Below, piece after piece: positions 142-63,848 of a stretch of 64,000 bases of DNA; the stretch's first letter is position 1; every line of letters starts with the position of its first letter. The stretch comes from a virus (lineage: Duplodnaviria; Caudoviricetes). A program made the translations under genes and the position numbers. The DNA lies in IMG/VR virus record IMGVR_UViG_3300028886_000057, positions 1-64,000 of that record; one strand, written 5' to 3'. The notes under the pieces are model-generated. The model worked only from the letters and a program-made list of their open reading frames with translations. It was not told the origin of the DNA and ran no database searches.

Positions 142-171
142 TTGCACCAAATTTCCGTTCTCTGCCATACT
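142..171 (+). promoter_or_regulatory. sigmaA-like promoter, 18-bp spacer
   Basis: TTGCAC(142-147)-18 nt-CATACT(166-171) with TGn extension. Confidence 0.5.
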
Positions 172-243
172 ATATTATATAGTGAGGTAGATAAAAAGTA
201 TCGACTCTATGTCTTGGCAAGAACCAGTATTATAAACCAAATT

Positions 244-272
244 AAAACCTCCCCTTCGGGAGGTTTTCTTTT
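244..272. terminator. intrinsic terminator, probably bidirectional
   Basis: AAAACCTCCC-CTTC-GGGAGGTTTT then CTTTT, just past the stop of 282..1436(-). Confidence 0.8.
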
Positions 273-281
273 ACCTTAGTA

Positions 282-1436
282 CTACCCCAGTTTACTATTC
301 AGCCCAATCTCTTTAACCGCATAGTACCCGCCCCAGTATTTCTCTCGTTCCGAGAGAAATGCGCCTATGGCGCCGCTACCGCTAACTGTCGCAGGAACCG
401 CTTCAACAAGCTCCCAATGCCATTCCTCAATACCGCTTTCCATCATGGCTTGGTACAATTTAATCCTACCCGTATTATCAACGCCCCAGGCTCGTTTCGC
501 GTGCGTTTTCCACCGCTCACCTACGTCAACTGCCTGACCGATATAGCTAAGTTCTCGGTCGCCATCTTTTCGCCAAATTCGATAAATACCACTGATTCCG
601 CTAACGCCTTGTTCTCTAACTAACCGTTCCACCTCCGGCTTCACATACACATCATAGGTCGCTTTTAAAACAGCGTTCTCGCACCGCATGCCGCGGCACA
701 ACCTCCTCAACGTATCGGCGTCCTCTTTATCCACGCCACCGAACCTAATGCTTCCGCCTTCTCCTTCCACCAAGGCCGCCCGTCTTAGCGCCTCAGCGTG
801 ACTGGCGGCCAGTGCATCGCGTTCAACGGCGATCTCTTCCAACCGCTTTAGCGCGGCGGCTTGTGCGGACTGCATCTCATCCCGAGCTTGGCGGCCGACC
901 TCCAACTCCTCCTTGAGCGCCGCCACGGCCTTAACCAACTCCGTTTCGGCCTCCGCTCGCTTTTGCGCGGCTTCCGTTTCAACTAACTGCGCCGCCTCAA
1001 CTCGCTTCTTTTCTATTTCCGCTTTTACCGTTTCCTCCCCCACGGCTTTAAGTTCCGCCAACTTGTTCTCTTGCCGCTCCATATCCTCTTTAACTTTTCG
1101 GGCCGCCGCCGTCCAATCCATAAATTGGGTTTTAGACGAATTTATCTGCGCCTCGGCCGCGCCCAACTCAACTTTCGCCAGCTCCACTTGCCCATTCAAA
1201 TTATCTCGTAGCGCTCGCAAATCCGCAACCTGCGCCTCCAGCGCCTTGTACCCCAGATCTGATTCCAGCTTCGCTTTCAGCGCTGCTTGTTGCCGCCGCA
1301 CCTCATTAAGCTCCTCGCTCAACTTCACGACTGTCTTCGCGCGCCCTCTCCACTTTATCAACAAAAAAATTGTAGCTCCGACCGCGACCGCCAAGGCCAC
1401 TCCCATCACTACAATCACTCCTACCCAACTTTCCAT
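282..1436 (-). CDS. membrane-anchored coiled-coil protein with C-terminal GIY-YIG nuclease domain
   Basis: Hydrophobic N-terminal helix followed by KWRGR, long E/K/A heptad region, then GIYRI..SYIGQA..RWKTH..EREKYW..GLN. Confidence 0.8.
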   Translation of the reverse strand: MESWVGVIVVMGVALAVAVGATIFLLIKWRGRAKTVVKLSEELNEVRRQQAALKAKLESDLGYKALEAQVADLRALRDNLNGQVELAKVELGAAEAQINSSKTQFMDWTAAARKVKEDMERQENKLAELKAVGEETVKAEIEKKRVEAAQLVETEAAQKRAEAETELVKAVAALKEELEVGRQARDEMQSAQAAALKRLEEIAVERDALAASHAEALRRAALVEGEGGSIRFGGVDKEDADTLRRLCRGMRCENAVLKATYDVYVKPEVERLVREQGVSGISGIYRIWRKDGDRELSYIGQAVDVGERWKTHAKRAWGVDNTGRIKLYQAMMESGIEEWHWELVEAVPATVSGSGAIGAFLSEREKYWGGYYAVKEIGLNSKLG

Positions 1437-1450
1437 ACATTTATTCCTTT

Positions 1451-1567
1451 CTATCTATAATCATCAAAATAAACATCCGATTTAAATAACCAAATTATAA
1501 ACCAAACCGTCGCGGCAATACAAATACCTACGCCGCAACTAAGAAAAACAATAAATGGCCAAGTCAT
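1451..1567 (-). CDS. 38-aa single-TM peptide (MTWPFIVFLSCGVGICIAATVWFIIWLFKSDVYFDDYR)
   Basis: Translated by hand; AAGGGG RBS; fills the gap in the operon. Confidence 0.55.
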   Translation of the reverse strand: MTWPFIVFLSCGVGICIAATVWFIIWLFKSDVYFDDYR

Positions 1568-1573
1568 AACCCC

Positions 1574-1684
1574 TTACCACATCTTAAGCGCATCCGCTAA
1601 TACCAATGTTTCCAAATCCACCGGTACGTAACGCTCTTTACGCAGTTTCCTTCCTTCCGATTTTTCGTCTTTGCGTTTTTTCAT
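1574..1684 (-). CDS. 36-aa basic peptide (MKKRKDEKSEGRKLRKERYVPVDLETLVLADALKMW)
   Basis: Translated by hand; strong GGAGGTGA RBS; promoter directly upstream. Confidence 0.6.
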   Translation of the reverse strand: MKKRKDEKSEGRKLRKERYVPVDLETLVLADALKMW

Positions 1685-1711
1685 TCGATTCACCTCCATT
1701 TGCAAAGTAAT

Positions 1712-1740
1712 AATATATTACACTTTAGAACTGAAAGCAA
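1712..1740 (-). promoter_or_regulatory. sigmaA-like promoter, 17-bp spacer
   Basis: TTGCTT-17-TATATT. Confidence 0.55.
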
Positions 1741-1788
1741 AATCGAGTTTGGCAGACTACTTACAATCTACTTTATTATGCCGCGAAA

Positions 1789-1818
1789 TTGCCCCTCTAA
1801 CCATTTTCATTTTACACT
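1789..1818 (+). promoter_or_regulatory. promoter of packaging genes, 18-bp spacer
   Basis: TTGCCC-18-TACACT followed by AAAGGA RBS. Confidence 0.55.
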
Positions 1819-1836
1819 AAGCCGAAGAAAGGAAAA

Positions 1837-2835
1837 TTGCTTATGAATTTTCGTTTTGCCGCATGCCCACGCACTAAAACCCTATCTAAACTTATGTCGA
1901 ACCGCAACAACCCGCTCGCCGAGGAAGTGTCGTTCGATTATATAGCCACCATTATCAATGTACGCGATATACATAGCGCGGAGTTTTTCTGCCGCACTTA
2001 TAACATTGCCTTTATGCCGGATGTATGGATTAAAATGGCGGACGCCATTCCTTTGCCGGCCAAAATGATTGAAGAGTATGCCGCCGCCATGTTCGATGAG
2101 CATAACAACGCGCTCGATGGTCAGACTGGCGAATACGTCGATCGCGCGCAACTTACGTTTGAAACTGTCAACAACCTTTGGGCTAAGACGATGAAACAGC
2201 GTGATATTTTATTGCGCCTTAAACCGCTTCAAGACGACTTTGTCGCCCGCGAGCGCATCAATTGGGGCGAACAATATGACTTTAACGATCTCATCAAATT
2301 GTCCGACCTTTATATTCAGTCTCTCAAGGCCAACTCTATTACCAATCCGATTCAGAAGGAGTCTCTTCGTACACTTCTCAAAATTATGATTGATATTAAC
2401 CGAGCCATCGTCACCAAGGATACGGCCGAATTAAAGTCTCTCACCGCCGCGTTCTCCACCATGGCCAAAACGGCCCAACTCGATAACATGATTGAAACCA
2501 CGCATACTGACGAGCTTTCAACTCTGGCCGAAATCGCGCAAATCGTCGAAGACAGCGGCTTCGATATGCCGTACTATGATGGTGCCGACCGTGACGCTAT
2601 CGACATTGCAATCCACGACATCGAAGAGTCGAATGCCAGACTCGTTAAGACCGCTACGGGCCTTGGTCCGCAAATTGAGCAGATGATGGCCAAGCACCGC
2701 GAGGAACAGGAGAAGAACGCTACTGAAGCCGCCCAAAACGACCTCGACATTTCTTCGCTTCTTTCCGCTTATTCCGATGAGCAACAGGTGGAGGAAGAAG
2801 ACGACGCCCTTATTACTAATAAGGAGTTTGAGTAA
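1837..2835 (+). CDS. helical protein, candidate terminase small subunit
   Basis: TAATG-coupled to terL; helical with acidic C-terminus; function from position only. Confidence 0.45.
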   Translation: MLMNFRFAACPRTKTLSKLMSNRNNPLAEEVSFDYIATIINVRDIHSAEFFCRTYNIAFMPDVWIKMADAIPLPAKMIEEYAAAMFDEHNNALDGQTGEYVDRAQLTFETVNNLWAKTMKQRDILLRLKPLQDDFVARERINWGEQYDFNDLIKLSDLYIQSLKANSITNPIQKESLRTLLKIMIDINRAIVTKDTAELKSLTAAFSTMAKTAQLDNMIETTHTDELSTLAEIAQIVEDSGFDMPYYDGADRDAIDIAIHDIEESNARLVKTATGLGPQIEQMMAKHREEQEKNATEAAQNDLDISSLLSAYSDEQQVEEEDDALITNKEFE

Positions 2836-4685
2836 TGGCCGTTGCACTAAAAGAACTCAAGCATAAGGATGCCGTTAAAATCGCCTCGACCTATGAAGAC
2901 TTTGGTATTGACTCCGAAATAGGCGAACTCATCGACTTTCTCCATGAAGACGAGCAGGAAGCTAGCGGCTTTATTACCAAAAAGCGCATTCTCAAAAACC
3001 GCGATAAGTGGGGCATGGTAATTAACCAGTGGCTTTGTTACCCCGATCTTTTCGTCGATCTTATTACGCCGCCTCGTTCTGAGTTCACACTCTACCCCTT
3101 TCAACGCATCATCATGCGTTGCATGGCGCGCAAAGTGCAGACCTATTGCGTCTTCAGCCGTGGTACTTCTAAATCATTCTGTGGCTTCCTTGAGCGTTAT
3201 ATTCAAGCCACTTTGACGCCGCGCCACCGCGCCGGTATCATCGCCGGCACTCGCAAGCAAGCAACCTCCATTGCTAAAGAAAAAATTATCGACGACCTTT
3301 GGAATAAGTTCCCGTTCCTCGGCAACGAAATGCAGAAGCGTCATGTTGCTGGTAAATACTTAGATGCCTATACCGCCGGTGCGGACTACGCGCGTTTCGG
3401 CTTTAAGAACGGGTCCTGGTTGGACGTTGCTTCTGATCGTGGTCTTCGTCGTGAGTCTGTCCTGTTCGAGGAAATTATCGAACAAGACCCAACCTTCGTC
3501 AATGAAATCGCTATTCCTTGGACCAACAAGCCGCGCTCTACTTCATTGGGCCGCATCAATCCTAATGAACCGCAGGCCCAGAAAATCTTCGTAACCACTG
3601 CCGGTTATCAAGGAACCTACGCTTACGACAAACTTATTCAGACCCTCATCATGTCAGTTATTCAACCAGAGCGCTACGCAGTTCTTACCGGTGACTATAA
3701 AATCCCGCTCTACCACGGTCTTATCCAGCAATCCGAAATTACCGACAAACTTAACGACCCTACCTTCAACAAAGCCTCCTTTGACCGCGAGTATATGTCG
3801 ATTTGGTCTGACGCTCCAACCGGCGCCGCTTTCCGTAGTTCCACTATTACCGCCCTTCGCAAAATCAAGCGTATCGAGCTTGAAAACAAAATCAATAAAG
3901 ACGACCCCGAACAAGTTAACGACTTCTACGTTATCGCACTCGACGTTGCTAAAGACGGTGACGCGAAGACTGACGGCATGATTGCGCGCGTGCGTCCAAA
4001 GCAGTACGCCTTCACCTATAAAATCATCAACCTCTTCCAAATCGACACCACCGACTTCTCTAATGTCGCTAACGAACTCAAACGCCTTATTATTGCCTTC
4101 GAGCCGCAACTCGTTATTTGGGATGCTAACGGTGTCGGCGCCGGCATCCGTGACTGGATGAATAAGCCAACCCAATCTGCAGACGGTTTCTCCTTTCCCG
4201 GCTACGGCATTATCAACCCACCTGATAGCGCTAAACAAGACCTCATTCTTTATCCGCCCGATCGCACCATCTGCTACGAAATCAAGTCCGGCGGCCAAAA
4301 AGGTTCTGATATTCACAACTTCCTTTTCAGCCGTATTTCTAACGGCTCCATCGTATTTCCAATCTCTAAGGGCGATGCGGTTGACCGCTACCAAAAGAAT
4401 AAGTCCTTCATGGCCCTTTCGGAAAAGCGCAAGATTGAAATTCTACGCCCCTACCAGCTAATGGATCTCGCTGAAGTACAGTTCCGCAACCTCGACATTC
4501 TTGAAGACACCAGTGTTGGCAGCCGTATCATCAAGATTAGCCGCCGCAACCAGGCTATCCAAAAAGACTTCTTCTCCGCTCTCGAATATCTCGTCTACGG
4601 AGTCAACCAATACATTGAGCTGCCCTATTACAAGAAACGGCTCACAACTAAAAATTCATTATTAAACGCCATAATTGTAGACTAG
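2835..4685 (+). CDS. terL: terminase large subunit
   Basis: LYPFQ adenine motif, SRGTSKS Walker A, VLFEE Walker B, VTTAG motif III, FDREY, ALDVA and KDFFSA RNase H-like nuclease motifs. Confidence 0.9.
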   Translation: MAVALKELKHKDAVKIASTYEDFGIDSEIGELIDFLHEDEQEASGFITKKRILKNRDKWGMVINQWLCYPDLFVDLITPPRSEFTLYPFQRIIMRCMARKVQTYCVFSRGTSKSFCGFLERYIQATLTPRHRAGIIAGTRKQATSIAKEKIIDDLWNKFPFLGNEMQKRHVAGKYLDAYTAGADYARFGFKNGSWLDVASDRGLRRESVLFEEIIEQDPTFVNEIAIPWTNKPRSTSLGRINPNEPQAQKIFVTTAGYQGTYAYDKLIQTLIMSVIQPERYAVLTGDYKIPLYHGLIQQSEITDKLNDPTFNKASFDREYMSIWSDAPTGAAFRSSTITALRKIKRIELENKINKDDPEQVNDFYVIALDVAKDGDAKTDGMIARVRPKQYAFTYKIINLFQIDTTDFSNVANELKRLIIAFEPQLVIWDANGVGAGIRDWMNKPTQSADGFSFPGYGIINPPDSAKQDLILYPPDRTICYEIKSGGQKGSDIHNFLFSRISNGSIVFPISKGDAVDRYQKNKSFMALSEKRKIEILRPYQLMDLAEVQFRNLDILEDTSVGSRIIKISRRNQAIQKDFFSALEYLVYGVNQYIELPYYKKRLTTKNSLLNAIIVD

Positions 4686-4772
4686 GCCGGGAGGTCGTTC
4701 AGTAACGCTTCCAAATTGGGCCCCGGCATTATTTCCATTTTACAATATAGCGTACAAGGAAAGTTTAAAGAC

Positions 4773-6275
4773 ATGGCCAAGAATACAGTAACTCCCGCGA
4801 ACAGTTTCAAAGTCACGACCATTGTCGATGACTCTACCGAAGTATTCACTGATACCGTTGACGTTAAAAATAAAGTTGGAAGCGCCACCGGTTACGGTGC
4901 GAACACGGCCTCATTTGCTACACAGGCAGACGTGCTCGCCCAATTACAAAAAGGTGATTCCGCTAGTGGTCGTAAGCAAATTGTTAAAGCTTCTCGACTT
5001 CTCTATGCGACTAATCCAACTTACTTCAAAATTATCAACTATTACGCCACCGCCTTCTTGCCGCGCTACTACATCACCCCTCGATATATGCCGACGCGTA
5101 TGTCGAAGAAGTTGGAGGGCGACAAGTGGTTCGAAGTTTACAGTTCAATGATTGAATACGCCGACGGCCTCAACCTCGACGTTAAAATGATTGACTTGCT
5201 CCGCACCATCTTCATTGAGGGCGGCGTATACTTCACGACCTTCTTCTCCGAAGAAAGCCAGTGCGTTGATACCATTGTTCTTCCTAGTGAATATGCATCC
5301 CGAGTTGGCGAAACTGAACTCGGCACCGACGTCATTCAATTTGACTTCTCTTATTTCGATTCGCTAGGTTTGAACGCGGAAGAGGTGGATGATCTTCTTA
5401 AAGGTTTTCCATCAGAGTTCAGCGAACTCTATCGTGCGTATAAAGCCGATTCCACTAAGCGCTTGGGCATACTAAGCCCGGCGCACTCCTCCTGTGTTCT
5501 ACTCAATTCTAAGGCAATCCCAACGCTCTTCTACGCCGCAATCGGTGTTAAGAACTATGAGAGTTATACCCAGAACGAGTTGGATAAAAGTACCCAAGCT
5601 TTGCAAACGATTGTTGAGCACCACATTCCGACGTACCAAGACAAATTACTCTTGGAATCGCCTGAAATGAACTTGCTTCATAAGAAGCTCTCAACAATTA
5701 CACGCAGCGCCAAGAACACGCGTCTTGTAACAACTATCGGTGACGTTAAAGTCCACCAGTTGCTCGAAGACGCCGGCAACGTGGCCGATAACACGCTTGA
5801 AAATGCTTATAAATCAATATACGATGCAGCTGGCGTCAACAATGGCCTCTTCTATGGAGACAACCAATATTCCGTTGAGTCCAGTTTGTCGATCGATCGA
5901 GGATTGGTGTGGTCCCTTATCGAGAAGTTAGCGAACTTCTATAATGTGGCTCTCAATAGTCTCGGTATTGATTTTAAGGGGTATCAAGTTGAATTGACGA
6001 TGATACCTATATCCAGAGACAAAGCTTCAACCGACATTGAACGTTATCGTGAAAGTGCCAAGTTGGGCGTTGGCGTTCTCCCCTTTATGATTGCGTCTGG
6101 AATAAAGCAGAAGAACGTTGACTCTTACCTCGACATGGAAACGAACCTAGGTTTGGTGGAGCGTCTCGTACCTTTGCGCAGCTCCAACACTATGGGCTCT
6201 GAATTTGGTGCTGAAAGCTCCAATTCCGATACCACAGTGTCAGCTGATGAGGAAAAAGAAAATGGTAAAGATTAA
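4773..6275 (+). CDS. portal protein
   Basis: About 500 aa directly after terL; ATG 4773 chosen for AAGGAAAG RBS. Confidence 0.75.
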   Translation: MAKNTVTPANSFKVTTIVDDSTEVFTDTVDVKNKVGSATGYGANTASFATQADVLAQLQKGDSASGRKQIVKASRLLYATNPTYFKIINYYATAFLPRYYITPRYMPTRMSKKLEGDKWFEVYSSMIEYADGLNLDVKMIDLLRTIFIEGGVYFTTFFSEESQCVDTIVLPSEYASRVGETELGTDVIQFDFSYFDSLGLNAEEVDDLLKGFPSEFSELYRAYKADSTKRLGILSPAHSSCVLLNSKAIPTLFYAAIGVKNYESYTQNELDKSTQALQTIVEHHIPTYQDKLLLESPEMNLLHKKLSTITRSAKNTRLVTTIGDVKVHQLLEDAGNVADNTLENAYKSIYDAAGVNNGLFYGDNQYSVESSLSIDRGLVWSLIEKLANFYNVALNSLGIDFKGYQVELTMIPISRDKASTDIERYRESAKLGVGVLPFMIASGIKQKNVDSYLDMETNLGLVERLVPLRSSNTMGSEFGAESSNSDTTVSADEEKENGKD

Positions 6276-7746: not shown

Positions 7747-7760
7747 TTGAGGTATTATAA

Positions 7761-8303
7761 ATGTTTCACTTAAAGTTCGTTAAAACTTTTAAACAGGTTG
7801 AACCTCAGCTTCTCCGTGGCCTCACCGCCGGTCTTGTTATCTCTCAGCGTCCCGTCAAGTACACCGCTGCCACCGAACAAGCCGCTGAGTCCTATGGTGT
7901 TGCAACCGTTGCGTTCAACGATTACAAGTATATCGAAAATGGTATCATTTGCGGACTCGACTCTAAAGGCCAAATTGTGAACTATGCTGGTAGCGGCAAA
8001 ATGTTCATTCACTTTGATGAAGAACTCAATGCTGACTACGACGCAAAGAACATGTTTGCTGTCGAATGCAAGGGTGCAGAAACCTACATCCGTCTTGTCG
8101 AGCTTCAGGTTGGTGACGAGTTCGTTACCGACAATGTTAACGGCACTTTCGTAGACGGTACTGTCTATGGTGTCGCCAATGGTGTTATCAGCTCCAGCGT
8201 TACCACTGGTGCCAGTGCCAAATTCCTCTACGAAGAGGGTGGCGCCTTTGAGAACACTCTCCCTAACGGCGAAAAGGGTTATCACTTCGTCTATCTTGGT
8301 TAA
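7761..8303 (+). CDS. capsid decoration/cement protein
   Basis: 180 aa beta-rich protein just before the major capsid gene; strongly biased codons. Confidence 0.6.
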   Translation: MFHLKFVKTFKQVEPQLLRGLTAGLVISQRPVKYTAATEQAAESYGVATVAFNDYKYIENGIICGLDSKGQIVNYAGSGKMFIHFDEELNADYDAKNMFAVECKGAETYIRLVELQVGDEFVTDNVNGTFVDGTVYGVANGVISSSVTTGASAKFLYEEGGAFENTLPNGEKGYHFVYLG

Positions 8304-8318
8304 TTGAGGTAGCAACTA

Positions 8319-9332: not shown

Positions 9333-9349
9333 TTTAGTGTAAATCGAGT

Positions 9350-9371
9350 GGTGGGGCCTTCGGGCCCCACC
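9350..9371 (+). other. GC-rich cUUCGg hairpin without U-tract
   Basis: GGTGGGGCC-TTCG-GGCCCCACC after the capsid gene. Confidence 0.7.
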
Positions 9372-9413
9372 CTAAAACTAGCTCCCGTGAGCTATAGAAA
9401 GGATTAAATATTA

Positions 9414-9899: not shown

Positions 9900-9912
9900 T
9901 TGGAGCTAGAGT

Positions 9913-11191: not shown

Positions 11192-11192
11192 T

Positions 11193-11693: not shown

Positions 11694-12418
11694 TGGATTG
11701 GTCTAACACATTAAGTATTAGTCATCTCTTTTACACGCACGACATCGTAGTGCTTGGCCCGGCAGGTGAGCAAGTTGTTGTTCATATACCGAGTCTGCGC
11801 GAGCAATTAGATGAATCCTTCTATATTCGCTTTCTTCAACTTTTTGATGATGAAAGTATGACATTATGGACGAAACTATTGCCAGATCTTGATAAAGGGC
11901 AAATTTTACAAGCTCTTATGACTGATCCGCGATTAACCAATTTACAAGAATTTTCTGCTCTTTCTCGATTGCTTCACGAAAAGATGCCGACATTACTGCC
12001 GCATTTTGAAATTCGTGAACGTCGGTTATATAGTGGACAAACACTATTAACTGGTGATGCGATTGATGAAGTATTGTTTGTTCTTTCTACGGGAATGGGT
12101 AAAAAGGCCGAACGTCCACAACATTTTGGCCCTGATGAAGAAGAGGCACGTAAGTTCTATGAACGAGCCAAGGCCGCACAGGCTAAAGCTGCTAAATTAC
12201 GAGCTGAGCATTCATCTTCAGATCATGATGGCTTAATGGATATGTTCGTCATGATTAGTATCAATTTCCCATATACATTTGAACAGATGTATGACATGAC
12301 ATTAGCTCAACTACATTATTTGCAACGCATGTCGTCGCAGATTATGAGTTATGAGCATAATATGATGGCATATACTGCGGGCAATTTGAAGAAGGCCCCT
12401 AACTTCTTCTTAAAATAA
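11693..12418 (+). CDS. hypothetical, tail assembly chaperone-like
   Basis: C-terminal MYDMTLAQLHYL resembles chaperone motifs; TAATG coupling. Confidence 0.4.
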   Translation: MDWSNTLSISHLFYTHDIVVLGPAGEQVVVHIPSLREQLDESFYIRFLQLFDDESMTLWTKLLPDLDKGQILQALMTDPRLTNLQEFSALSRLLHEKMPTLLPHFEIRERRLYSGQTLLTGDAIDEVLFVLSTGMGKKAERPQHFGPDEEEARKFYERAKAAQAKAAKLRAEHSSSDHDGLMDMFVMISINFPYTFEQMYDMTLAQLHYLQRMSSQIMSYEHNMMAYTAGNLKKAPNFFLK

Positions 12419-13110: not shown

Positions 13111-13137
13111 CCCCTTCTACGGAAGGGGTTTTCTTTT
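13111..13137 (+). terminator. intrinsic terminator
   Basis: CCCCTTC-TACG-GAAGGGG-TTTTCTTTT. Confidence 0.85.
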
Positions 13138-13165
13138 GCCTTGGAAAACAGGATTGCCGCATAAT
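13136..13165 (+). promoter_or_regulatory. promoter, 18-bp spacer
   Basis: TTGCCT-18-CATAAT before GAGGT RBS. Confidence 0.55.
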
Positions 13166-13901: not shown

Positions 13902-15613
13902 TGAGTTACACAGACCGTCGCGCACGTTTGCGTGGTGGATTTAAACTTAACCAGACAATCATGCGATCACACATGCGCTTAAAAGCCGCATCTACACGAC
14001 AGTATGATTTAGGTCCACTACCATATACTTGGGAGGGTGATTACGGCCTTGCTGAAGCTACTACTGGACTTCATTATTTACACTCTAGTATTAAAGGTTT
14101 TATTGACGAGGCCGCTCAAATTGAACGAGATTATAAGCTTGATGCCTTCTTTACGGCTCGCGTCAATGACATATGTCTGCAAAACCAACAACGTATCCGA
14201 CAATTGCGCGAAGGGTGCGAAAACATAAAAGTCGAGATGTTTGGAGGAACACGTGATCAAGATGTAAACACTACGCCAGCAATTCAAGAATTTTATGGAA
14301 AAAATGCGGCATTTTTTAAAACATTAGAAGAATTACGCAGTTTTGCTACATATAGATTTCACGATGTGAACTGGAAAAAAGATGCTGCATTTTTAGACAC
14401 ACTACGTAGACGATTGAAACAAGATCCAAATAATCCAACATTAAAACAACAACATGATGATTTTGCTCGCCAATTTTATGATAGATATGCTAAAACTGTT
14501 TCTACGCAAATTCAGCAACTTTATGACTTTATAAATCAATATGGTAGTCCCGCATCTTTTACAAAACTGCTTGATGTATTGCAAGATATGGAAACAAGAT
14601 TAAGGCAACAAATAGATACTGGTGCAAAATCTATTAGTTTTAGTCGGAAACTTAATATTCCTTCACGTTTAGGTAAAGCATTTGAGCCTATTGTAACTTT
14701 TCTGTTAAATAATACTAAACAGGGCGCGGCACACTTTGTCGCTGATGAGACAATTGCTGATCAGAATTTTATAACAGACGCTATTATTAAAGGAAAAAAT
14801 ACTAAGACCGTCGTTATCCATGATTCTACTTCGCGTTTTCTTAATGGTTTGTCTATTAAATTTACTAATAACAATAGTTTTGATGCAAAGCCAACAATCC
14901 ATACTAATGAAACATTATCAGAGTTTACAGAAAATATGGCCGACCAACAAGTAGATGCTTTGGCATATTTGTATAATAATATTGTAGCTTTAAGTTTATA
15001 TAACTCCTCTGATCGTACCCGAGGGGCTGTCAGAGGTAATTTAATGTCTGGACACAACCGTGTTGGTAAAGTTTTTTCAAAAATGTTAAAATATTATAAT
15101 TTATATTTAATTAATACATTCTTATGGGGTAACGCTAAAGACGCCGGCTCAGTACAACCATTTAACAAGGACTATTTTAATAATATTGGGAAAACTCCCG
15201 CTCCAGTATTTTTTGTTAATCAGAATCAGTTTTTTGAATCTTGGCGAGTATTTCAAAATATACAAGATACAATTTTAGGCGGCACGCTATTATGGGATAA
15301 TAATTTAACAAATAGTTTATTCTCCGATAGTAGAACTGGACAAGCTGCGTTGCGCGAATTATATGCGACTAAGGCTGCATGGCTGACACAGAGTAGTGAT
15401 GCCATTTATACTGTATTACGTCACCGACCAAAGGTTAACCCTATGCCTGCTTATTTAAGCTTTAATGGTAAATCTGGCGTTACGGGCGGAGATTCTGCCG
15501 ACAATATTATGGAAACTTTTTTACAGCCAACTTGGAATCCATATCGTGATATTATACAACAGTCGCAATCTCGTACATTGCGAACTAAAATTGAATTACT
15601 TAAATATTATTAA
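13901..15613 (+). CDS. 570-aa hypothetical protein, possible PD-(D/E)xK-like domain
   Basis: AT-rich long ORF; GKAFE..ITDAII..GLSIK pattern. Confidence 0.4.
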   Translation: MSYTDRRARLRGGFKLNQTIMRSHMRLKAASTRQYDLGPLPYTWEGDYGLAEATTGLHYLHSSIKGFIDEAAQIERDYKLDAFFTARVNDICLQNQQRIRQLREGCENIKVEMFGGTRDQDVNTTPAIQEFYGKNAAFFKTLEELRSFATYRFHDVNWKKDAAFLDTLRRRLKQDPNNPTLKQQHDDFARQFYDRYAKTVSTQIQQLYDFINQYGSPASFTKLLDVLQDMETRLRQQIDTGAKSISFSRKLNIPSRLGKAFEPIVTFLLNNTKQGAAHFVADETIADQNFITDAIIKGKNTKTVVIHDSTSRFLNGLSIKFTNNNSFDAKPTIHTNETLSEFTENMADQQVDALAYLYNNIVALSLYNSSDRTRGAVRGNLMSGHNRVGKVFSKMLKYYNLYLINTFLWGNAKDAGSVQPFNKDYFNNIGKTPAPVFFVNQNQFFESWRVFQNIQDTILGGTLLWDNNLTNSLFSDSRTGQAALRELYATKAAWLTQSSDAIYTVLRHRPKVNPMPAYLSFNGKSGVTGGDSADNIMETFLQPTWNPYRDIIQQSQSRTLRTKIELLKYY

Positions 15614-15639
15614 TATACTAATTTAGTGAAAGGATATTT

Positions 15640-16028: not shown

Positions 16029-16083
16029 TTGACCTTGTAACGAATTCTATGCTACTCTGAAATATAGAGTAGCTTTTTCTTTT
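16029..16083 (+). promoter_or_regulatory. overlapping promoter (18-bp spacer) and terminator
   Basis: TTGACC-18-TACTCT; the -10 lies in stem GCTACTCT-gaaatat-AGAGTAGC followed by TTTTTCTTTT. Confidence 0.5.
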
Positions 16084-30166: not shown

Positions 30167-30216
30167 AATTTACTTCCTTCGTTTTATTGTAGCGGAGAAA
30201 GTGTCTTTGGGCAAAC

Positions 30217-35836: not shown

Positions 35837-35865
35837 ATTTTAAGCTAAAAAGTCGTTCTTAGCAA
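35837..35865 (-). promoter_or_regulatory. dnaE promoter, 17-bp spacer
   Basis: TTGCTA-17-TAAAAT. Confidence 0.6.
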
Positions 35866-42243: not shown

Positions 42244-42307
42244 ATTATACGAAATATAACGCCTTTAATCAAATAAAAAATACCTGTCATATTTCTTGAC
42301 AGGTATT
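42244..42307 (-). promoter_or_regulatory. terminator followed by 17-bp promoter
   Basis: TACCTGTCA-7-TGACAGGTA plus T tract (42275-42307), then TTGATT-17-TATAAT (42272-42244). Confidence 0.7.
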
Positions 42308-43558: not shown

Positions 43559-43720
43559 GTTAAAATTTCTCCTTTATTGACAAAATGTTATTTATAAACA
43601 TCAGAAATCTTCGAGTTCCGAAATCGGCTAGATTATTTCTTTCCTTTTTCATTTCTGATAGTTTAATTTATCTGAATGGTTGAGTTTTTTCAAAATAGTT
43701 TAGCTATTTTTTAATTTTGA

Positions 43721-47048: not shown

Positions 47049-48067
47049 CGAGCGCTAGCTACTCGCTGACTATTTCTTCATCTATATTATAGATGCCTAA
47101 CATTTCGAATTACGTACCAATAGTAATTCTACTCCCCAACAACGGGGATAGTCGATACAGGTATGTTATGCAATTCAGATAAATACTGCTGATGTAATGC
47201 TTCTATCTTGGCTTTATTTTTCGCCCTGCAACGATAGCCAGCATTACCATATAATGGATCCACAATGGACTGGCATACTTCTTGAAAAGTTTGCCAATCC
47301 ACTACTTGTTTAAATAATGGATACACCTTATTGTATTTAATTGGACCATAATATTTAAATATAATTACTAATTGATTTTTATCATTATCAGTTAATTGAT
47401 TACGACGTTTGGTGGCATATACTGAATGATCTGGTTTTGGATATTTGCCTACGTATTCTGGACAAACATCAAACCAACAATCATGCAGCCATACTTTACT
47501 AAATCCATTTCGCACTCCGCCAGGCATTTTGGCTTCATAATCTTTATATACATCTGATAAACGCTCTCCATTCATGCGGCGTCGACGAATTTCTCGAACG
47601 TCATCTTCAGTAATCAAGGCACGTGGATTATTCTCCCCTTTGACGCTAGGTAAGTTGCTAACATCATCACCGCCTAGAGTAGCATTATATCCATCATAAT
47701 AAGAATTATATATTTGAATATAATGTTGCTCTAATTGTTTCGCCTCTTCTCTAGTTTCGCATTGATCAATTATATCAACGGTGAAATTCTCCCATCCATA
47801 TTTTTGAATACTTAAATCAATAGGAGATTGAGGTGCGTCGTGTCCAGCACGATGTTGTTGCATACGTCGTTGGATGTTAACTGTAATACCAATATATGGT
47901 TTATTGGTAATTAAATTTGTAATTTTATAGATATATTGCATAACTTCCCACGAGACTCCTTATTACTATATTAGTATAGTAATAAGTTACCCTCGTTAGC
48001 AAATCCGGTTGCAGAATCCGAACTTACCCCAGTGGTTACTGGATAGAAAGGTAAGGGCAACTCATTC
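47049..48067 (-). mobile_element. group I intron (1019 nt) carrying a homing endonuclease
   Basis: Exon 1 ends GAGGGU, pairing with GCCCUU (P1, U-G wobble); UGAGUU pairs exon 2 GACUCA (P10); R=CCUGUAUCGACUA, S=GAAGAAAUAGUC (P7); terminal G; removal restores ITEG|DSASG. Confidence 0.92.
47129..47941 (-). CDS. intron-encoded GIY-YIG homing endonuclease
   Basis: YIYKITN..YIGIT..RMQQH..LEQHYI..GYNATLGG; GENNPRALITEDDVREIR DNA-binding module. Confidence 0.92.
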   Translation of the reverse strand: MQYIYKITNLITNKPYIGITVNIQRRMQQHRAGHDAPQSPIDLSIQKYGWENFTVDIIDQCETREEAKQLEQHYIQIYNSYYDGYNATLGGDDVSNLPSVKGENNPRALITEDDVREIRRRRMNGERLSDVYKDYEAKMPGGVRNGFSKVWLHDCWFDVCPEYVGKYPKPDHSVYATKRRNQLTDNDKNQLVIIFKYYGPIKYNKVYPLFKQVVDWQTFQEVCQSIVDPLYGNAGYRCRAKNKAKIEALHQQYLSELHNIPVSTIPVVGE

Positions 48068-50126: not shown

Positions 50127-50172
50127 TCTCCATGTATATTAATGTACATGACATGTGTATATTAAGGCAAAT

Positions 50173-50529: not shown

Positions 50530-50624
50530 TATTATCCTCCTTATATTATAAGTATAAAAAAGACTTTCGTTGAAGTCAAGATATTTCTATCACAACTTCT
50601 TCAAAAGTCTGAAAAATAATAGTT

Positions 50625-52415: not shown

Positions 52416-52470
52416 ATCTTCCCTTTCATTAGTTATTTTATTCTATTCGATTAAATCGCTGAAATCAAAA

Positions 52471-57624: not shown

Positions 57625-57792
57625 TTAATCCTCCTTGATTAACAACCCTAGTTCTATTGCCTTATTTATGTCTAATGTAAAGTATGTACCACCGAACTGA
57701 ACTACGTAATTTATAGTTAACTTATTACCATTCGCCACGATACGTGTAGCCATAGTGCCATGATATGTAGTACCGCGCTCCTCTTCATCCAT
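57625..57792 (-). CDS. 55-aa hypothetical protein
   Basis: Translated by hand; AAAGGA RBS; promoter TTGACT-17-TATAAT at 57822-57850. Confidence 0.55.
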   Translation of the reverse strand: MDEEERGTTYHGTMATRIVANGNKLTINYVVQFGGTYFTLDINKAIELGLLIKED

Positions 57793-57897
57793 AAGGTTTT
57801 TCCTTTCTTATCTTTAATATTATTATACGTGTGAATAGCGTTAAAGTCAATAAAAAATGGGCCGACAGTTACAAGGAACTGTTGCAGCCCACGCAAT

Positions 57898-58326
57898 TTA
57901 CTTGCCTGTCGAGCCGAAGCCACCAACCCTTTCTCCAAAGGCGGCGTCATCACTCGTAATTAGATACGGCACAAATATACCTTGGCAGAAGCGGTCGCCA
58001 GCCTTAATAACCAGCGGCTCTTCTGAGCGGTTTTCGAGAAAAATGGCAATCTCGAAGCCGCAATAGTCAGCGTCAATTATGCCGACCGTATTAACAATGG
58101 CCATGCCGCGCTTAATTGCCATAGAAGAGCGCGGATACGCCTGCAATACCCAACGCATTGTATCGGCGTTGTCGAGTGCCACGGTCACATTGGTCGGTAT
58201 TTTTATTTTGCCATGCGGCTCAATCGTATAGTCGGCGGGTGAGAAGAAGTCATAGCCGGCACTATTCGCAGTGGCGCGCATCGGCAATTGGGTTTCTTCT
58301 TCGGGTCTAACTAATTCAAAATGCAT
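57898..58326 (-). CDS. dut: trimeric dUTPase
   Basis: SAGYD, PRSS, GIIDADY, GDRFCQ, RVGGFGSTG. Confidence 0.96.
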   Translation of the reverse strand: MHFELVRPEEETQLPMRATANSAGYDFFSPADYTIEPHGKIKIPTNVTVALDNADTMRWVLQAYPRSSMAIKRGMAIVNTVGIIDADYCGFEIAIFLENRSEEPLVIKAGDRFCQGIFVPYLITSDDAAFGERVGGFGSTGK

Positions 58327-61151: not shown

Positions 61152-61210
61152 TAAAAAAACTAACACTATCGTGCTAGTTTTATTATAGACAAATGTTTTG
61201 AAATAAGCAA
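61152..61210 (-). promoter_or_regulatory. nrdD promoter (17-bp) abutting a terminator-like hairpin
   Basis: TTGCTT-17-TATAAT then AAAACTAGCAC-GATA-GTGTTAGTTTT plus T tract. Confidence 0.6.
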
Positions 61211-61226
61211 GTTAATTTTGCGTTTG

Positions 61227-61442
61227 TTAGTTTTTGCGGGCTGCGAAAAATGCCTTGGCTTGACCGAGATTCATAAGCGTGCCGTCCTCAAATTCAATCC
61301 AGGGTACGGCTTTAAAGCCTTTAGAGCGCATGAGGTCGGTATCAGTGTTTTCGGTCCAGGTATAGCCGTTCTGTTTCAAGAGAATGGTCATAGCAGTACA
61401 AGCGGGGCAGTGCGTGGTGTAAAGGGTTACATGTTTTTCCAT
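61227..61442 (-). CDS. glutaredoxin/NrdH-like redoxin
   Basis: LYTTHCPAC, AVP cis-Pro. Confidence 0.85.
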   Translation of the reverse strand: MEKHVTLYTTHCPACTAMTILLKQNGYTWTENTDTDLMRSKGFKAVPWIEFEDGTLMNLGQAKAFFAARKN

Positions 61443-62110
61443 TATTCTTTATTCCTTTCTTCATAAGCGAGCAAGCTTTCATAAACCGCTTCTGGGTAAT
61501 GCGCCCCGACACAATGCGGCCAATGATAGTTTTTAGTAGATACGCCTTTGCCAATATGTAAGATTTCAGCAACATGGCGATAGATAAATAGTACGGGCGG
61601 CACATGAGTTACAATATCGTTCTTGTTGCGAATAATGCGGAAATGTTTCCAGCGTTCACGCAACTCTTTCTTGAGATGCCAGCCGAAGAAAATGCGCGGG
61701 GCTTCAAAACCAAAACCGGCTAAGCCATATTCACGCAGATCGGGGCGATAATACCAAACACATTCGTGGCAGAAAGTAGCAAGCGCACCACCATGGGAGT
61801 AGCCGACAACCACGATTTGTTTCCAACGGTATCCATTATCGTCGGTTTCTAAGATTTTGGCGATAATGAGATCTTCGACTTCTTTCCAAGCGGCTAGAAA
61901 GCCACGATGAACTCGATATGGCACAGCCATATCTTTGTACGGACGGGCTGGGAATAAGAAGTTGCGAATCCAATCGGTAGTAGAGGAACTACCTTGGAAA
62001 TAGATGTAGAGGAGGTCACCACTTTCTACAAATGCGTAATTTACGTCATGGCCGACTGTTTGATATTGTACATCATATGCACACCGATGAAAGAGGGTGC
62101 TTAATTTCAT
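61442..62110 (-). CDS. class 3 lipase (alpha/beta hydrolase)
   Basis: FQGS, VHRGF, GYSHGG, FEAPR, DIVTHVPP, C-terminal H; promoter TTGACA-18-CACAAT at 62162-62191. Confidence 0.9.
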   Translation of the reverse strand: MKLSTLFHRCAYDVQYQTVGHDVNYAFVESGDLLYIYFQGSSSTTDWIRNFLFPARPYKDMAVPYRVHRGFLAAWKEVEDLIIAKILETDDNGYRWKQIVVVGYSHGGALATFCHECVWYYRPDLREYGLAGFGFEAPRIFFGWHLKKELRERWKHFRIIRNKNDIVTHVPPVLFIYRHVAEILHIGKGVSTKNYHWPHCVGAHYPEAVYESLLAYEERNKE

Positions 62111-62198
62111 AAACTTCACCTTAATTTTAAAGTTAAATGTAAAATTCAATTGACCTATTTAATTGTGGCGGAAATACAATGGGAATGTCAAATATATA

Positions 62199-63785
62199 TT
62201 AAGCAGTATGATAATGTTCGCCATCTATAATTGTTTGATCGGTGTACACGGATTGATCTGAAGAGTCTTGTAACATAACGCCATTAACTTTTACAAATGA
62301 ACGCTGCCCAACATTTTGTGACTCTAAAGTTAAACCATATTTTTTTAAAGTAAATGGTGTGCTACTAAGAGCGCTGGTTTGTGTATTCCAAGTATCTCCT
62401 GTATTAAAGGCAATAGCATAACGTATATCGTTAATATACAAAACACGAGTATTCGATAACCCCGCGCGAACAGCATTTTGAACGTCGGGTAAATGACTAC
62501 AAAAACTTAGAATATTTTCTGTGCTATTGTAGGCATACGCCATTAACAATTCAGAATTGCCTCCGACAATATATTCTTTAGTGATATAAGTAGAGCCAAG
62601 AGAGGTTGTTTCCGTAGGATTTGATGAAGAGGTTGTGTCCCACACCAATTTGCCTTCACTGGAATAGTTATGTAAGTACATCGGGCAGAGGTTTTTATAT
62701 TGTACGTATGGGGCGCGATCTGAAGCATGGACATAGATTTGGGTGTCATCAGCTAAAACGGAAGTGTAATTACTTGATAAAACTTCATATTCCAATGCTG
62801 GGGTCGTCCAATATGGGGATAAAATAGAAAAACCCTCGGTTGTTGGAAGCGCTGAACATTTTGCGCTGCCGAAGGTCGGACCTTCAGAAAAACCCTCAAC
62901 GGAATAGTGATCTTGATCTAATTTTAGCCCATTAGCAACGCCAGTACCAGAGAAAATTGCTTGCGCATAAGTTGAAATAAGGTGGTTAGATATATGATAA
63001 TTATGATTAATTGTGTATAATTGAGACACGTTTTTATCCTTTAAACCATGTCCGCCAACTAATAATAATTTATTAGGCGCTAGAGATTCATGTGGACAAA
63101 TAGCGATCCAGTGACTGCCATATACGGTTGAGTTTACTGCATAATCGGTAGTTGTCCATTCTTGTTTAATTTGTAGATTTGCCCAATCTATACTATATTG
63201 CGCCGTGCCCCTGGCATCCACATATTGATGTCGCGTAAAGCTCCAAAAAGCGGTGATATTAGACATCCCAGGACCCGTCACTACTGCATAAATACAGAGA
63301 GGCATCCAATAGTGAGATAATAGATGGGCCGGAGGTTGTAAGCGAGCCAGGTGGTTATCCATTGGTATAATATATTTTTGAGAATTACTGTCTAATGTAT
63401 ATGGAAATTGGTACCATTCATCTTTCAAACCTATCGCTACATCATCATATTGTGGCGAATCTGTGGTAATCATATTGCCGGCCACAACTGTACATTGATA
63501 TGGGGCCGGTACATTTGATTGTAACACTAAACGAGAACCGGAATAAGTAATATTAGCATAATAACTATCCTCAGTGTTGGTTATGTTAACTGACTTCCCC
63601 TTGTGTAAAGAAGTTGTGATTGCAAGCCTATAATTAGTAAAAGTAACATCTAATTGAAGTGGGTCTAATTGAATGGAACTTGGTAACTCCCATGCACCGT
63701 CTTCGGTATATATGTGTGTGGCCTGTAAACGTTTGACCGTTAGTGCGCTACCATATGAAAAACCTGTCGAAAAAATAATAGCCAT
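62199..63785 (-). CDS. 528-aa beta-rich protein, possibly virion/adhesin
   Basis: S/T/Y/N-rich like the tail tip genes; promoter TTGCTG-18-TATATT. Confidence 0.5.
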   Translation of the reverse strand: MAIIFSTGFSYGSALTVKRLQATHIYTEDGAWELPSSIQLDPLQLDVTFTNYRLAITTSLHKGKSVNITNTEDSYYANITYSGSRLVLQSNVPAPYQCTVVAGNMITTDSPQYDDVAIGLKDEWYQFPYTLDSNSQKYIIPMDNHLARLQPPAHLLSHYWMPLCIYAVVTGPGMSNITAFWSFTRHQYVDARGTAQYSIDWANLQIKQEWTTTDYAVNSTVYGSHWIAICPHESLAPNKLLLVGGHGLKDKNVSQLYTINHNYHISNHLISTYAQAIFSGTGVANGLKLDQDHYSVEGFSEGPTFGSAKCSALPTTEGFSILSPYWTTPALEYEVLSSNYTSVLADDTQIYVHASDRAPYVQYKNLCPMYLHNYSSEGKLVWDTTSSSNPTETTSLGSTYITKEYIVGGNSELLMAYAYNSTENILSFCSHLPDVQNAVRAGLSNTRVLYINDIRYAIAFNTGDTWNTQTSALSSTPFTLKKYGLTLESQNVGQRSFVKVNGVMLQDSSDQSVYTDQTIIDGEHYHTA

Positions 63786-63821
63786 ATTAATTCCTCATTA
63801 TCATTTTAATATAACATAAAT

Positions 63822-63848
63822 AAAAAAGCGTCAGCAAACTGACGCTTT
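63822..63848 (-). terminator. intrinsic terminator containing the -35 of the next promoter
   Basis: AAAGCGTCAG-TTTG-CTGACGCTTT plus T tract. Confidence 0.8.

Follow-up and report, generated by a model that had tools for sequence, protein, structure and literature searches.

Two promoter families of different spacer length in a rumen siphophage, and a phage sigma factor as a candidate reader of one of them

Candidate promoter sites in the window

The analyzed stretch of DNA (the window, 64 kb) is the first part of the complete 130,088-bp genome of a rumen siphophage. Candidate promoters with a TTG -35 element lie on both strands. The plus-strand sites belong to the packaging and structural blocks; the phage terminase resembles SPbeta YonF and its counterpart in Geobacillus virus E3. 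Sites are given as -35 hexamer, spacer length in nucleotides and -10 hexamer.

142..171, plus: TTGCAC-18-CATACT with a TGn extended -10, from the pattern scan
244-267: bidirectional terminator about 70 nt downstream of the 142 site (fold z -3.2)
1749..1779, plus: TTGGCA-19-TATTAT, a further long-spacer candidate ahead of the packaging genes (PWM S 13.3, P 0.015)
1789..1818, plus: TTGCCC-18-TACACT, 24 nt before the first packaging gene (1843)
4716..4746, plus: candidate portal promoter, (CAAA)TTGGGC-19-TACAAT, spacing conserved in relatives
12386..12416, plus: TTGAAG-19-TAAAAT before the tail-tube gene (pattern match)
13136..13165, plus: TTGCCT-18-CATAAT before a 239-aa tail gene, directly 3' of a terminator (13110-13129)
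15591..15619, plus: TTGAAT-17-TATACT, sole 17-nt site in the late block
16029..16058, plus: TTGACC-18-TACTCT, -10 within a terminator stem (16051-16073)

1494..1523, minus: TTGTAT-18-TATAAT upstream of a 384-aa TM/coiled-coil/GIY-YIG gene
1712..1740, minus: TTGCTT-17-TATATT for a micro-protein/GIY-YIG operon, divergent from the packaging promoters
30186..30214, minus: TTGCCC-17-TACAAT (PWM P 0.02)
35837..35865, minus: TTGCTA-17-TAAAAT before the DNA polymerase gene, preceded by a terminator (PWM P 0.01)
42244..42272, minus: TTGATT-17-TATAAT before the operon of a Sak-type annealing protein (PWM P 0.02)
43665..43693, minus: TTGAAA-17-TAAATT (pattern match)
47973..48002, minus: TTGCTA-18-TATACT AATATAG in a putative gyrB intron, before its GIY-YIG gene (PWM P 0.01)
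50141..50170, minus: TTGCCT-18-TACATT before a free-standing GIY-YIG gene (PWM P 0.37, weak alone)
50551..50579, minus: TTGACT-17-TATACT (PWM P 0.015)
52440..52468, minus: TTGATT-17-TAGAAT, 3' of a terminator (PWM P 0.08)
57822..57850, minus: TTGACT-17-TATAAT, 3' of a terminator (pattern match)
61182..61210, minus: TTGCTT-17-TATAAT before nrdD (PWM P 0.005)
62162..62191, minus: TTGACA-18-CACAAT before a class-3 lipase gene, weak (PWM P 0.59)
63808..63837, minus: TTGCTG-18-TATATT before a 528-aa gene (PWM P 0.31)

The initial annotation had assigned 17-nt spacers to replication, metabolism and accessory genes and 18-nt spacers to genes plausibly expressed late. Its nine TTGnnn-17-TAnnnT sites (1740 to 57850, and 61210) all matched exactly on the minus strand, and the 17-nt exception within the tail module (15591) and the 19-nt spacers at 4716 and 12386 were likewise as described. 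For the 18-nt set, the spacer lengths were correct, but the -10 hexamers at 142, 13136 and 62191 are of the form CAnnnT, not TAnnnT. The 12386 site was graded as weak because it overlaps both a hairpin and the last part of the preceding gene, and the 63837 site because its -35 element lies in a terminator loop. The 16029 site, which had been proposed as the promoter of the tape measure gene, is probably not a promoter, given the position of its -10 element. Each of the four GIY-YIG/homing genes within the first 75 kb has an 18-nt site (1523, 48002, 50170 and 74348); the label 'late' for the minus-strand genes with 18-nt sites, i.e., homing endonucleases, lipase and the 528-aa gene, is an assumption.

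Spacer length, sequence character and conservation

The pattern TTGNNN-N(8..30)-NANANT was counted in the intergenic DNA of the full genome at all spacer lengths from 8 to 30 nt, split by block. In the late plus-strand (structural) blocks, the 18-nt spacer occurred nine times and the 17-nt spacer once, with a mean of 1.05 for the other spacers (Poisson P 1.6e-6). The replication minus-strand block contained 11 sites with 17 nt and nine with 18 nt over a mean of 1.7 for the other spacers, and the spacer-scan control gave P 7.6e-5 for its 18-nt excess. In the early minus-strand arm, which carries small genes and tRNAs, 28 sites had 17 nt, eight had 16 nt and four had 18 nt. Spacer use was compared between late and early blocks (Fisher 1.4e-5) and between late and replication blocks (0.024; 0.09 without overlapping or weak late sites). 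Genome module and spacer class are associated, early with 16-17 nt and structural with 18/19 nt, and the earlier claim that spacer class tracks gene module was thus upheld in an unbiased count. In the window alone, and with the exact pattern of the initial annotation, the contrast was 1:4 versus 8:5 (P 0.29), so that the full genome was required to see the bias.

When sites were scored against the generic sigma70 consensus (9 or more matches of 12), the 18-nt excess in the late block shrank to 4 versus about 1.5. Under a PWM derived from the early promoters, the 48002 site was the only 18-nt site of the initial annotation to reach P<0.05 as the best match of its region (P 0.01). The sites at 1789, 16029, 50170, 62191 and 63837 fell short, the 142 site lay outside the scan, and the 13136 site, with a score of 10.9 at 18 nt, was beaten by a spurious 15-nt match. 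Rumen RNA contigs cover only capsid genes of relatives and yield no transcription starts.

The phage carries at least two promoter families. The early family consists of TTG(A/T)CA, a 16- or 17-nt spacer and (C)G TATAAT, and its members are near-identical across about 45 nt, a stretch that takes in the transcribed leader. The long-spacer family consists of TTG(C)nn, 18 nt (19 nt in the portal promoter), T(g)C, (T/C/G)ATACT and AAAnTA(G). Its sites precede the blocks for packaging, portal, tail and tail fibres, as well as homing endonuclease genes and clustered large genes of unknown function. Its logo (class B) has a variable -12 position, C at -8, T at -15 in 7/8 sites, C at -13 in 5/8, TGn in 4/8 and AAA after the -10 element, while TTG, A-11 and T-7 are retained. 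Beyond ATACTA, TTTTGC and the GTGAGGT ribosome site, no further shared motif was found in the late upstream regions. The 17-nt family fits the sigmaA type in its TTGACA-like -35, its spacing of 17 +/- 1 nt, its TATAAT-like -10 and its intergenic position facing a gene. For the long-spacer family, 18 nt is the edge of the sigmaA range, 19 nt occurs at 4716 and 1749, and most sites match at most 9 of 12 consensus bases.

The two classes are not separated by one base of spacer alone, as had been proposed, because the -10 type also differs. TTG..TATAAT pairs were found at six sites with 16 nt and 23 with 17 nt versus one with 18 nt, whereas TTG..NATACT pairs were found at 10 sites with 18 nt versus five with 17 nt (Fisher 4e-5). 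The notion of similar hexamers holds for the shared TTG, but the 18-nt sites prefer TTGC and (T/C/G)ATACT. When the uniform early family was left out, the sequence difference between the 17-nt and 18-nt sets was no longer significant; much of the contrast between -10 type and spacer stems from this highly uniform family.

The 19-nt spacing of the portal promoter and CAAATTGG are common to the relatives L009, L010, L011 and L012/13, with a spacer identity of only 3-9 of 19 bases. Similarly, the P88183 ortholog in L054/L055 retains TTGC, 18 nt and TATACT GAAATAG at a spacer identity of 7/18. Length kept during turnover of the spacer sequence points to selection on spacing in these two cases. At 13136, length is retained in L014, and all three substitutions lie in the spacer. 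L009 retains TTGCC./18/TACACT at 1789 as well as the 17-nt site at 1712..1740 and the 19-nt site at 1749..1779, and it lacks the segment with the 1494..1523 site; L010 has TTGATT-18-TATACT at the place of 1789. Across lineages, the packaging promoter has 18 nt in G000, L009, L010 and L017 and 17 nt in L018-20, G004 and G005. Relatives with a different sigma factor (G003, G004) or without one (G005) have 17 nt before late genes, and late promoters of relatives are likewise off-consensus, but at 17 nt. Other phages with the same sigma type (CAVPW, see below) have many TTGACn-18-TGaTATAAT promoters adjoining the sigma gene in early-looking regions; 18 nt is therefore readable there, presumably by host sigmaA. 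Together with the 17-nt late promoters of distant relatives, this means that an 18-nt spacer does not mark late promoters in general.

The phage sigma factor and possible readers of the two families

The initial annotation had named a phage sigma factor, an activator or the phage topoisomerase as possible switches. Outside the window, the genome encodes a sigma factor (84692-85684, minus strand) with Pfam regions 2 (3.6e-16), 3 (4e-14) and 4 (3.1e-15), and GyrA-like and GyrB-like topoisomerase proteins are present as well. Neither a MerR-family gene nor a dyad or operator shared by class B spacers was found in the genome. The sigma factor matches PDB SigA chains with values up to 3.6e-52 and is closest to SigA/RpoD, yet RpoD_Cterm scored 208 bits, below the cut-off of 354, and all other equivalog models for RpoD, RpoS and SigB were also below their cut-offs. 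In alignment with bacterial RpoD, it begins at region 1.2 and lacks region 1.1 and the N-terminal extension; Pfam r1_1 and r1_2 gave no match. It retains TRERIRQ in the -35 recognition helix and, in region 3.0, the H..E that contacts the extended -10.

In region 2.3/2.4, the phage clade has FSTCAVPWI in place of the FSTYATWWI of bacterial RpoD, whose Y-A-T-W-W residues hold the -12/-11 edge of the transcription bubble. Y430 and W433 of the -10 upstream edge (numbered as in E. coli) are thus absent from the phage sigma. The motif FSTCAVPWI is present in 17/20 aligned phage-clade sequences, the Cys being replaced by F or A in the other three; V432 and P433 occur in 20/20 and C430 in 17/20, at identities from about 98% down to about 50%. 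The phage sigma is derived from Bacillota RpoD (SigA). Its own candidate promoter, P85742, is of the 17-nt TATAAT type of the early family.

We tentatively favour the reading that this SigA-like sigma reads the long-spacer class, which would fire late, and regard it as a serious candidate that falls short of being probable. Host sigmaA would read the 16/17-nt consensus family, i.e., the small-gene/tRNA arm and the sigma gene itself; the phage sigma would accumulate and take core RNA polymerase, and its holoenzyme would then read the TTG(C)nn-18/19-(T/C/G)ATACT family. Both the pairing of sigma factors with families and the late firing of the second family are inferred. The reading is favoured because of the module bias of spacers, the pairing of -10 type with spacer, the class logos, the conserved CAVPW substitutions, the promoter type of the sigma gene, the long spacing kept at the portal promoter and P88183, and the 17-nt spacers in relatives with a different or no sigma. 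Against it count the location of half of the 18-nt sites in the replication arm, the variety among class B sites, which is large for a sigma regulon, the loss of a significant sequence difference between the 17-nt and 18-nt sets once the early family is left out, and the 18-nt promoters in early-looking regions of other phages with the CAVPW sigma type. An improbable extension is that spacer length acts as a ruler between host sigmaA and the CAVPW sigma (18-19 nt, relaxed -12) with tiers of 16, 17 and 18/19 nt. If so, three temporal tiers would be encoded with almost identical hexamers.

It is also possible, albeit doubtful, that host sigmaA reads both families and that the long-spacer promoters are deliberately weak and become active late via copy number, supercoiling or an unrecognised activator. 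The preserved TTG, A-11 and T-7, the TGn at half of the class B sites, the off-consensus 17-nt late promoters of relatives, and the many 18-nt promoters with consensus hexamers that related contigs with a sigma gene have in their early regions agree with this. The GyrA/GyrB-like enzyme could raise negative supercoiling and thereby favour long spacers, but this activity is only putative; in the short GyrA of the phage, a single C-terminal blade was detected. Moreover, a conserved sigma with altered -10 edge residues would be left without target promoters, and an activator of the MerR type or a shared spacer dyad is missing from the genome.

Ancestry without a role in timing is unlikely. The early promoters would then descend from a single cassette by duplication, with the spacer fixed at 17 nt (16 nt for those at the right end), the 18-nt promoters of homing genes would have come in with the endonuclease cassettes, and the 18/19 nt of the late block would be a lineage-specific coincidence. 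The near-identity of early promoters, the 18-nt sites of all four homing genes, the 18 versus 17 nt of packaging promoters between lineages and the sequence contrast that fades without the early block are in accord with ancestry. Nine late 18-nt sites versus about one elsewhere, unlike in sequence, are hard to explain in this way, as is the length retained despite spacer turnover. That chance or picking bias produced the pattern, and that the 18-nt sites are not promoters, is very improbable: most of these sites are individually non-significant with the early-trained PWM, two (16029 and 63837) overlap terminators, and the window-only test gave no significant contrast, but the spacer-scan control showed the excess in both the late and the replication blocks, and sites are conserved in relatives. 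In summary, the observation of the initial annotation is confirmed, and its interpretation is partly supported.

Comparison with known systems

In the sigma cascade of Bacillus phage SPO1 (gp28, gp33/34), an early phage sigma redirects the host core polymerase to later classes. As in SPO1, early genes lie behind strong host sigmaA consensus promoters and a sigma is phage-encoded, its role here being proposed. However, the SPO1 sigmas are very diverged and their hexamers quite different, whereas the sigma described here is RpoD-derived (regions 1.2 to 4) and its candidate targets are still sigmaA-like, differing by one or two nucleotides of spacer, -12, -8 and the fourth base of the -35. Two closely related sigmas of E. 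coli, sigmaS and sigma70, share a consensus, and their promoters are told apart by minor features, namely a C at -13, a -10 of the TATACT type followed by A/T-rich DNA, and the degree to which off-optimal spacers are tolerated. The C at -13, TATACT and the AAA after the -10 in class B resemble this, as a lead only; sigmaS is a cellular stress sigma, and its -13C preference is tied to a Lys in region 3.0 that replaces Glu, the residue of the phage sigma at this position.

MerR-type promoters have 19-20-bp spacers, within which a bound dimer untwists the DNA. The phage likewise has over-long spacers, which would need help, but it has no MerR gene or class B spacer dyad. Late transcription of the SPbeta YonO type differs as well, since the DxDGD motif of such single-subunit RNA polymerases is absent from every frame of the phage genome. 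T4 late promoters consist of a bare TATAAATA that is read by gp55, without a -35 element, whereas the 18-nt sites have a TTG -35. Intron homing endonuclease genes of T4 (e.g., I-TevI) have their own middle/late promoters, and, similarly, the 48002 site lies directly before the GIY-YIG gene of the putative gyrB intron, and other homing genes have their own 18-nt sites. In matched E. coli promoters, highly negative supercoiling is favourable to 18-19-nt spacers, whereas relaxed DNA suits short ones (PMC9303308). The phage differs in that its groups vary also in base content, but it has GyrA/GyrB-like genes and, by module, groups of 16, 17 and 18/19 nt.

Genome layout and individual promoter candidates

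The window belongs to a single virus record of 130,088 bp (G000), which CheckV rated as complete. Near-identical DNA is present in bovine gut metagenomes, and a megablast search against phage GenBank records gave no match. The genome is laid out as follows (G000 coordinates):

1843-29247, plus strand, structural block
29278-74311, minus strand, replication and nucleotide arm
74448-83930, plus strand, second block with a weak tail-fibre match
84-130 kb, minus strand, small-gene arm rich in small genes, also carrying 33 tRNAs and a tmRNA

The large terminase of the structural block is about 33% identical to the terminases of Geobacillus virus E3 and SPbeta-like phages, and the tape measure protein contains PF10145. 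The replication arm encodes a DnaE-type polymerase, RecJ-like, primase/Toprim, DnaB-like and Sak proteins, as well as GyrA-like, GyrB (with an intron), NrdD, lipase and PhoH proteins. The 33 tRNA genes and the tmRNA (minus strand, 92000-122000) are interspersed among 17-nt early promoters. G000 uses the standard genetic code. Five relatives with the same genome plan (G001-G005, the records behind L017, L020, L021, L023 and L024) seem to use alternative codes: treating TGA as a sense codon lifts coding density in G001-G004 from 0.64-0.77 to 0.86-0.90, and treating TAG so lifts it in G005 from 0.71 to 0.88. In-frame TGA codons, two to five per terminase gene, were found in L010, L012, L016-18, L020 and L023.

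Promoter candidates are named by the start of their -35 element. The initial annotation had assigned 17-nt spacers to replication, metabolism and accessory genes and 18- or 19-nt spacers to genes plausibly expressed late. When the sequence was checked, a TTG-initial -35 element at the assigned spacing was found at every one of its coordinates. At 142, 13136 and 62191 the spacing held, but the -10 element is CAnnnT and not TAnnnT. All nine 17-nt sites, including 1740, lie on the minus strand. The -10 element of 16029 falls within a terminator stem (16051-16073), and the -35 element of 63837 in a terminator loop.

Downstream of the site at 142, only about 95 nt precede a strong bidirectional terminator (244-267). 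The region 142-280 contains no convincing ORF and has no Rfam match (a scan of the entire window gave nothing at gathering scores), and it folds with -27.3 kcal/mol (z -3.2); its transcript may be a small RNA. Each of the four GIY-YIG/homing-endonuclease genes in the first 75 kb has an 18-nt-spacer site of its own:

1494-1523 (window), 18-nt site of a homing gene
47973-48002 (window), 18-nt site of a homing gene
50141-50170 (window), 18-nt site of a homing gene
74319-74348 (G000), 18-nt site of a homing gene

For the gene of 112 aa at 73973-74311, the PHROG matches are to homing endonucleases. A segment of about 115 nt (window 1451-1567), which carries an ORF for a 38-aa membrane peptide and the 1523 promoter, is absent from the 85-88% identical relative L009. 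The ORF of 68-78 aa at 57717-57923 is probably not a gene, because of its overlap with both the 57850 promoter and a terminator hairpin. For the 1150-aa and 677-aa genes downstream of long-spacer sites, no Pfam or PHROG family was found; the former also had no IMG/VR relatives and no useful Atlas hit.

Spacer lengths, -10 elements and their conservation

To quantify spacer usage, intergenic matches to TTGNNN-N(x)-NANANT were tallied for x = 8-30, so that the spacer served as its own control. Counts were made per module, in gene direction, for the full genome.

Matches at each spacer length, by module
Late plus-strand blocks (1848 intergenic nt): 16 nt, 1; 17 nt, 1; 18 nt, 9; 19 nt, 1; other spacers, mean 1.05
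Replication arm: 16 nt, 1; 17 nt, 11; 18 nt, 9; 19 nt, 1; other spacers, mean 1.7
Small-gene arm: 16 nt, 8; 17 nt, 28; 18 nt, 4; 19 nt, 10; other spacers, roughly 6

The unbiased scan that the initial annotation had proposed thus did not refute its finding, as the late blocks showed an 18-nt peak (Poisson P 1.6e-6). Late and early spacer counts differed (Fisher 1.4e-5), as did late and replication counts (Fisher 0.024, or 0.09 without overlapping or weak late hits). With the exact pattern of the annotation in the window alone, the ratios were 1:4 versus 8:5 (P 0.29), numbers that are too small. A plain sigma70 consensus score gave a weak late 18-nt excess (4 versus about 1.5), because the long-spacer sites are poor sigmaA matches, and with a matrix trained on early promoters most 18-nt sites were individually not significant.

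The annotation had further described the two classes as separated by one base of spacer. The contrast in spacer length was borne out, but the separation is not limited to one base, as the -10 types differ too (Fisher 4e-5 for the association with spacer length). TTG..TATAAT sites have spacers of 16 nt (6 sites), 17 nt (23) and 18 nt (1); TTG..NATACT sites were found 10 times at 18 nt, 5 times at 17 nt and about 0.6 times per other spacer. The early family reads TTG(A/T)CA, 16/17 nt, (g/t)CG TATAAT, with the conserved leader AAtaaTatAAaG. The core of the long-spacer family is TTGCat, 18 nt, T(g)C, (T/C/G)ATACT, AAAnTA(G), with T at -15 in 7/8, TGn in 4/8 and C at -13 in 5/8 sites. The only distinct promoter family of G000 departs from the host type at a few positions and by one or two bases of spacer. 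Base contrasts at -8, -14 and the fourth -35 base were significant only when the uniform early family was included. When only the replication-arm 17-nt sites were used for comparison, no contrast reached significance, the best being C at -12 (0/12 versus 6/18, P 0.057); the 17- and 18-nt sets were thus no longer sharply different in sequence once the early block was removed.

Six perfect TTGACA-16-(gCG)TATAAT promoters are clustered before small genes at the right end (123.9-127.7 kb), and 16-, 17- and 18/19-nt groups therefore occupy different places in the genome. This cluster may be an immediate-early group with a third spacer length. A shared-motif search of late upstream regions yielded nothing beyond ATACTA, TTTTGC and the ribosome site GTGAGGT. 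Of 15 late upstream regions, 4-5 have this unusual site, GTGAGGT(A) (0.06-0.2 expected); ribosome sites of early genes are of the AAGGA(A/G)A type. Its positions are:

178-190 (window), GTGAGGT(A) site
13170-13178 (window), GTGAGGT(A) site
16083-16089 (window), GTGAGGT(A) site
81055-81063 (G000), GTGAGGT(A) site

L009 and L014, whose DNA is about 85-91% identical to G000, keep 1749 (19 nt), 1789 (18 nt), 4716 (19 nt) and 13136 (18 nt). Substitutions in these relatives are confined to the spacer at 13136, and to the spacer and the sixth -35 base at 1789. In L010 (terminase 70% identical) and L011-L013 (57%), the portal promoter retains CAAATTGG and its 19-nt spacing, while only 3-9 of the 19 spacer bases are shared. 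TTGnnn-18-TATACT precedes the packaging genes of L010 and L017, and the L054/L055 ortholog of promoter P88183 is TTGCGC-18-TATACT GAAATAG, with a spacer identity of just 7/18. In more distant relatives that share this genome plan, late genes are preceded by 17-nt sites: nine were counted in G003, mostly TTGnTn..TATACT; G004 has six at 17 and five at 18 nt, and G005 a single consensus TTGACT-17-TATAAT. An apparent excess of NATACT at 20 nt in G005 was traced back to faulty gene calls. Selection thus acts on the long spacing within the lineage of G000, but the family as a whole follows no such rule.

A phage-encoded sigma factor

The initial annotation had recognised no sigma factor, which is correct for the window; however, the genome encodes one outside it:

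84692-85684, minus strand, sigma factor of 330 aa with Pfam regions 2, 3 and 4

The protein is closest to SigA/RpoD but under every curated cut-off. It starts at region 1.2, retains TRERIRQ (region 4.2) and H..E (region 3.0), and carries FKFSTCAVPWINQQIYR at the position of YKFSTYATWWIRQAITR in RpoD. In E. coli numbering the changes are Y430C, T432V, W433P, R436N and T440Y, at residues that keep the -12/-11 edge of the open complex in place and have been genetically tied to -12. Orthologs of about 98% to about 50% identity have V432 and P433 in 20/20 aligned proteins and Cys430 in 17/20, whereas bacterial RpoD keeps YATWW. The nearest cellular relatives (about 42% identity) are RpoD proteins of Erysipelotrichaceae, Catenibacterium and other Bacilli, which gives a hint of the host lineage, pointing to Erysipelotrichales.

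Orthologs of the sigma are encoded on contigs of 126.6 kb (P0009, 73% identical), 55.8 kb (P0004, 81%), 46.6 kb (P0002, 88%) and 33 kb (P0016, 67%), and a JGI scan revealed at least 15 further contigs with FSTCAVPW sigmas (36-41% identity); an IMG/VR search for relatives found none. The clade with CAVPW in region 2.3/2.4 is thus common, with at least 20 different proteins, plus 15 or more additional metagenome contigs. The sigmas of G003 (YATFW) and G004 (FAVYW) belong to a different branch, and none was found in G005.

P85742, the promoter of the sigma gene, belongs to the class with a 17-nt spacer and TATAAT. L054/L055 lack about 1.2 kb upstream of the gene (L054 2940-3055 versus G000 85726-86937), namely the genes at 85726-86936; the TATAAT box and leader are kept there and the -35 element is degenerate.

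A putative sigma switch and known systems

In the best-supported mechanism, which we hold tentatively on the basis of sequence comparisons, host sigmaA would read the 16/17-nt consensus promoters, including that of the sigma gene, and the phage sigma would then read the candidate long-spacer family. The latter would drive genes for packaging, portal, tail and fibre proteins, together with the homing endonucleases and a cluster of unknown genes at 61-74 kb. This reading is favoured by the module bias of the spacers, by the conservation of spacing while spacer sequence diverges, by the variable -12 position of the long-spacer family, which fits the rewritten -12/-11 edge of the sigma, and by the conserved phage sigma being otherwise without target promoters. 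Against it stands the heterogeneity of the long-spacer family. Furthermore, contigs with CAVPW sigmas have many TTGACn-18-TGaTATAAT sites next to the sigma gene (25 at 18 nt versus 62 at 17 nt), so that 18-nt promoters with good hexamers are readable in early-looking regions there.

It is possible, if somewhat doubtful, that the long-spacer sites are instead weak sigmaA promoters whose output rises through copy number, through negative supercoiling due to the phage GyrA/GyrB-like enzyme, or through another factor; high negative supercoiling favours long spacers (PMC9303308). That the spacer pattern reflects ancestry and has no role in timing is unlikely, and chance, given the 18-nt peak, is highly improbable. 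MerR-type activation was rejected, as neither a MerR gene nor a spacer dyad was found. A YonO-like phage RNA polymerase was suspected because the terminase resembles SPbeta YonF, and was discarded as no reading frame contains a DxDGD motif. Contigs from six rumen metatranscriptome runs covered only 4.7-13 kb of positions 1-20000, at 90-96% identity, and therefore come from relatives; one starts at 4767 and another stops at 12982, ends that are not usable as start-site evidence.

A large lineage of uncultured rumen phages thus has a sigma derived from RpoD in which the -12/-11 junction residues are rewritten in a conserved way. If the phage sigma reads the long-spacer family, this would be a clean natural system for how region 2.3/2.4 sets -10 register and spacer preference, and would show how little promoter change suffices for a holoenzyme switch; if the link is false, the finding reduces to ordinary strong early and weak late sigmaA promoters. 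Temporal programmes run by phage sigmas are classic, and the switch would be an as yet unproven variation on this sigma-cascade theme, working like the cascade of SPO1. To our knowledge, however, promoters in the known phage cases bear no likeness to those of the host. The promoter logic of G000 is closer to that of the sigmaS/sigma70 pair, in which small features and spacer tolerance separate two similar sigmas.
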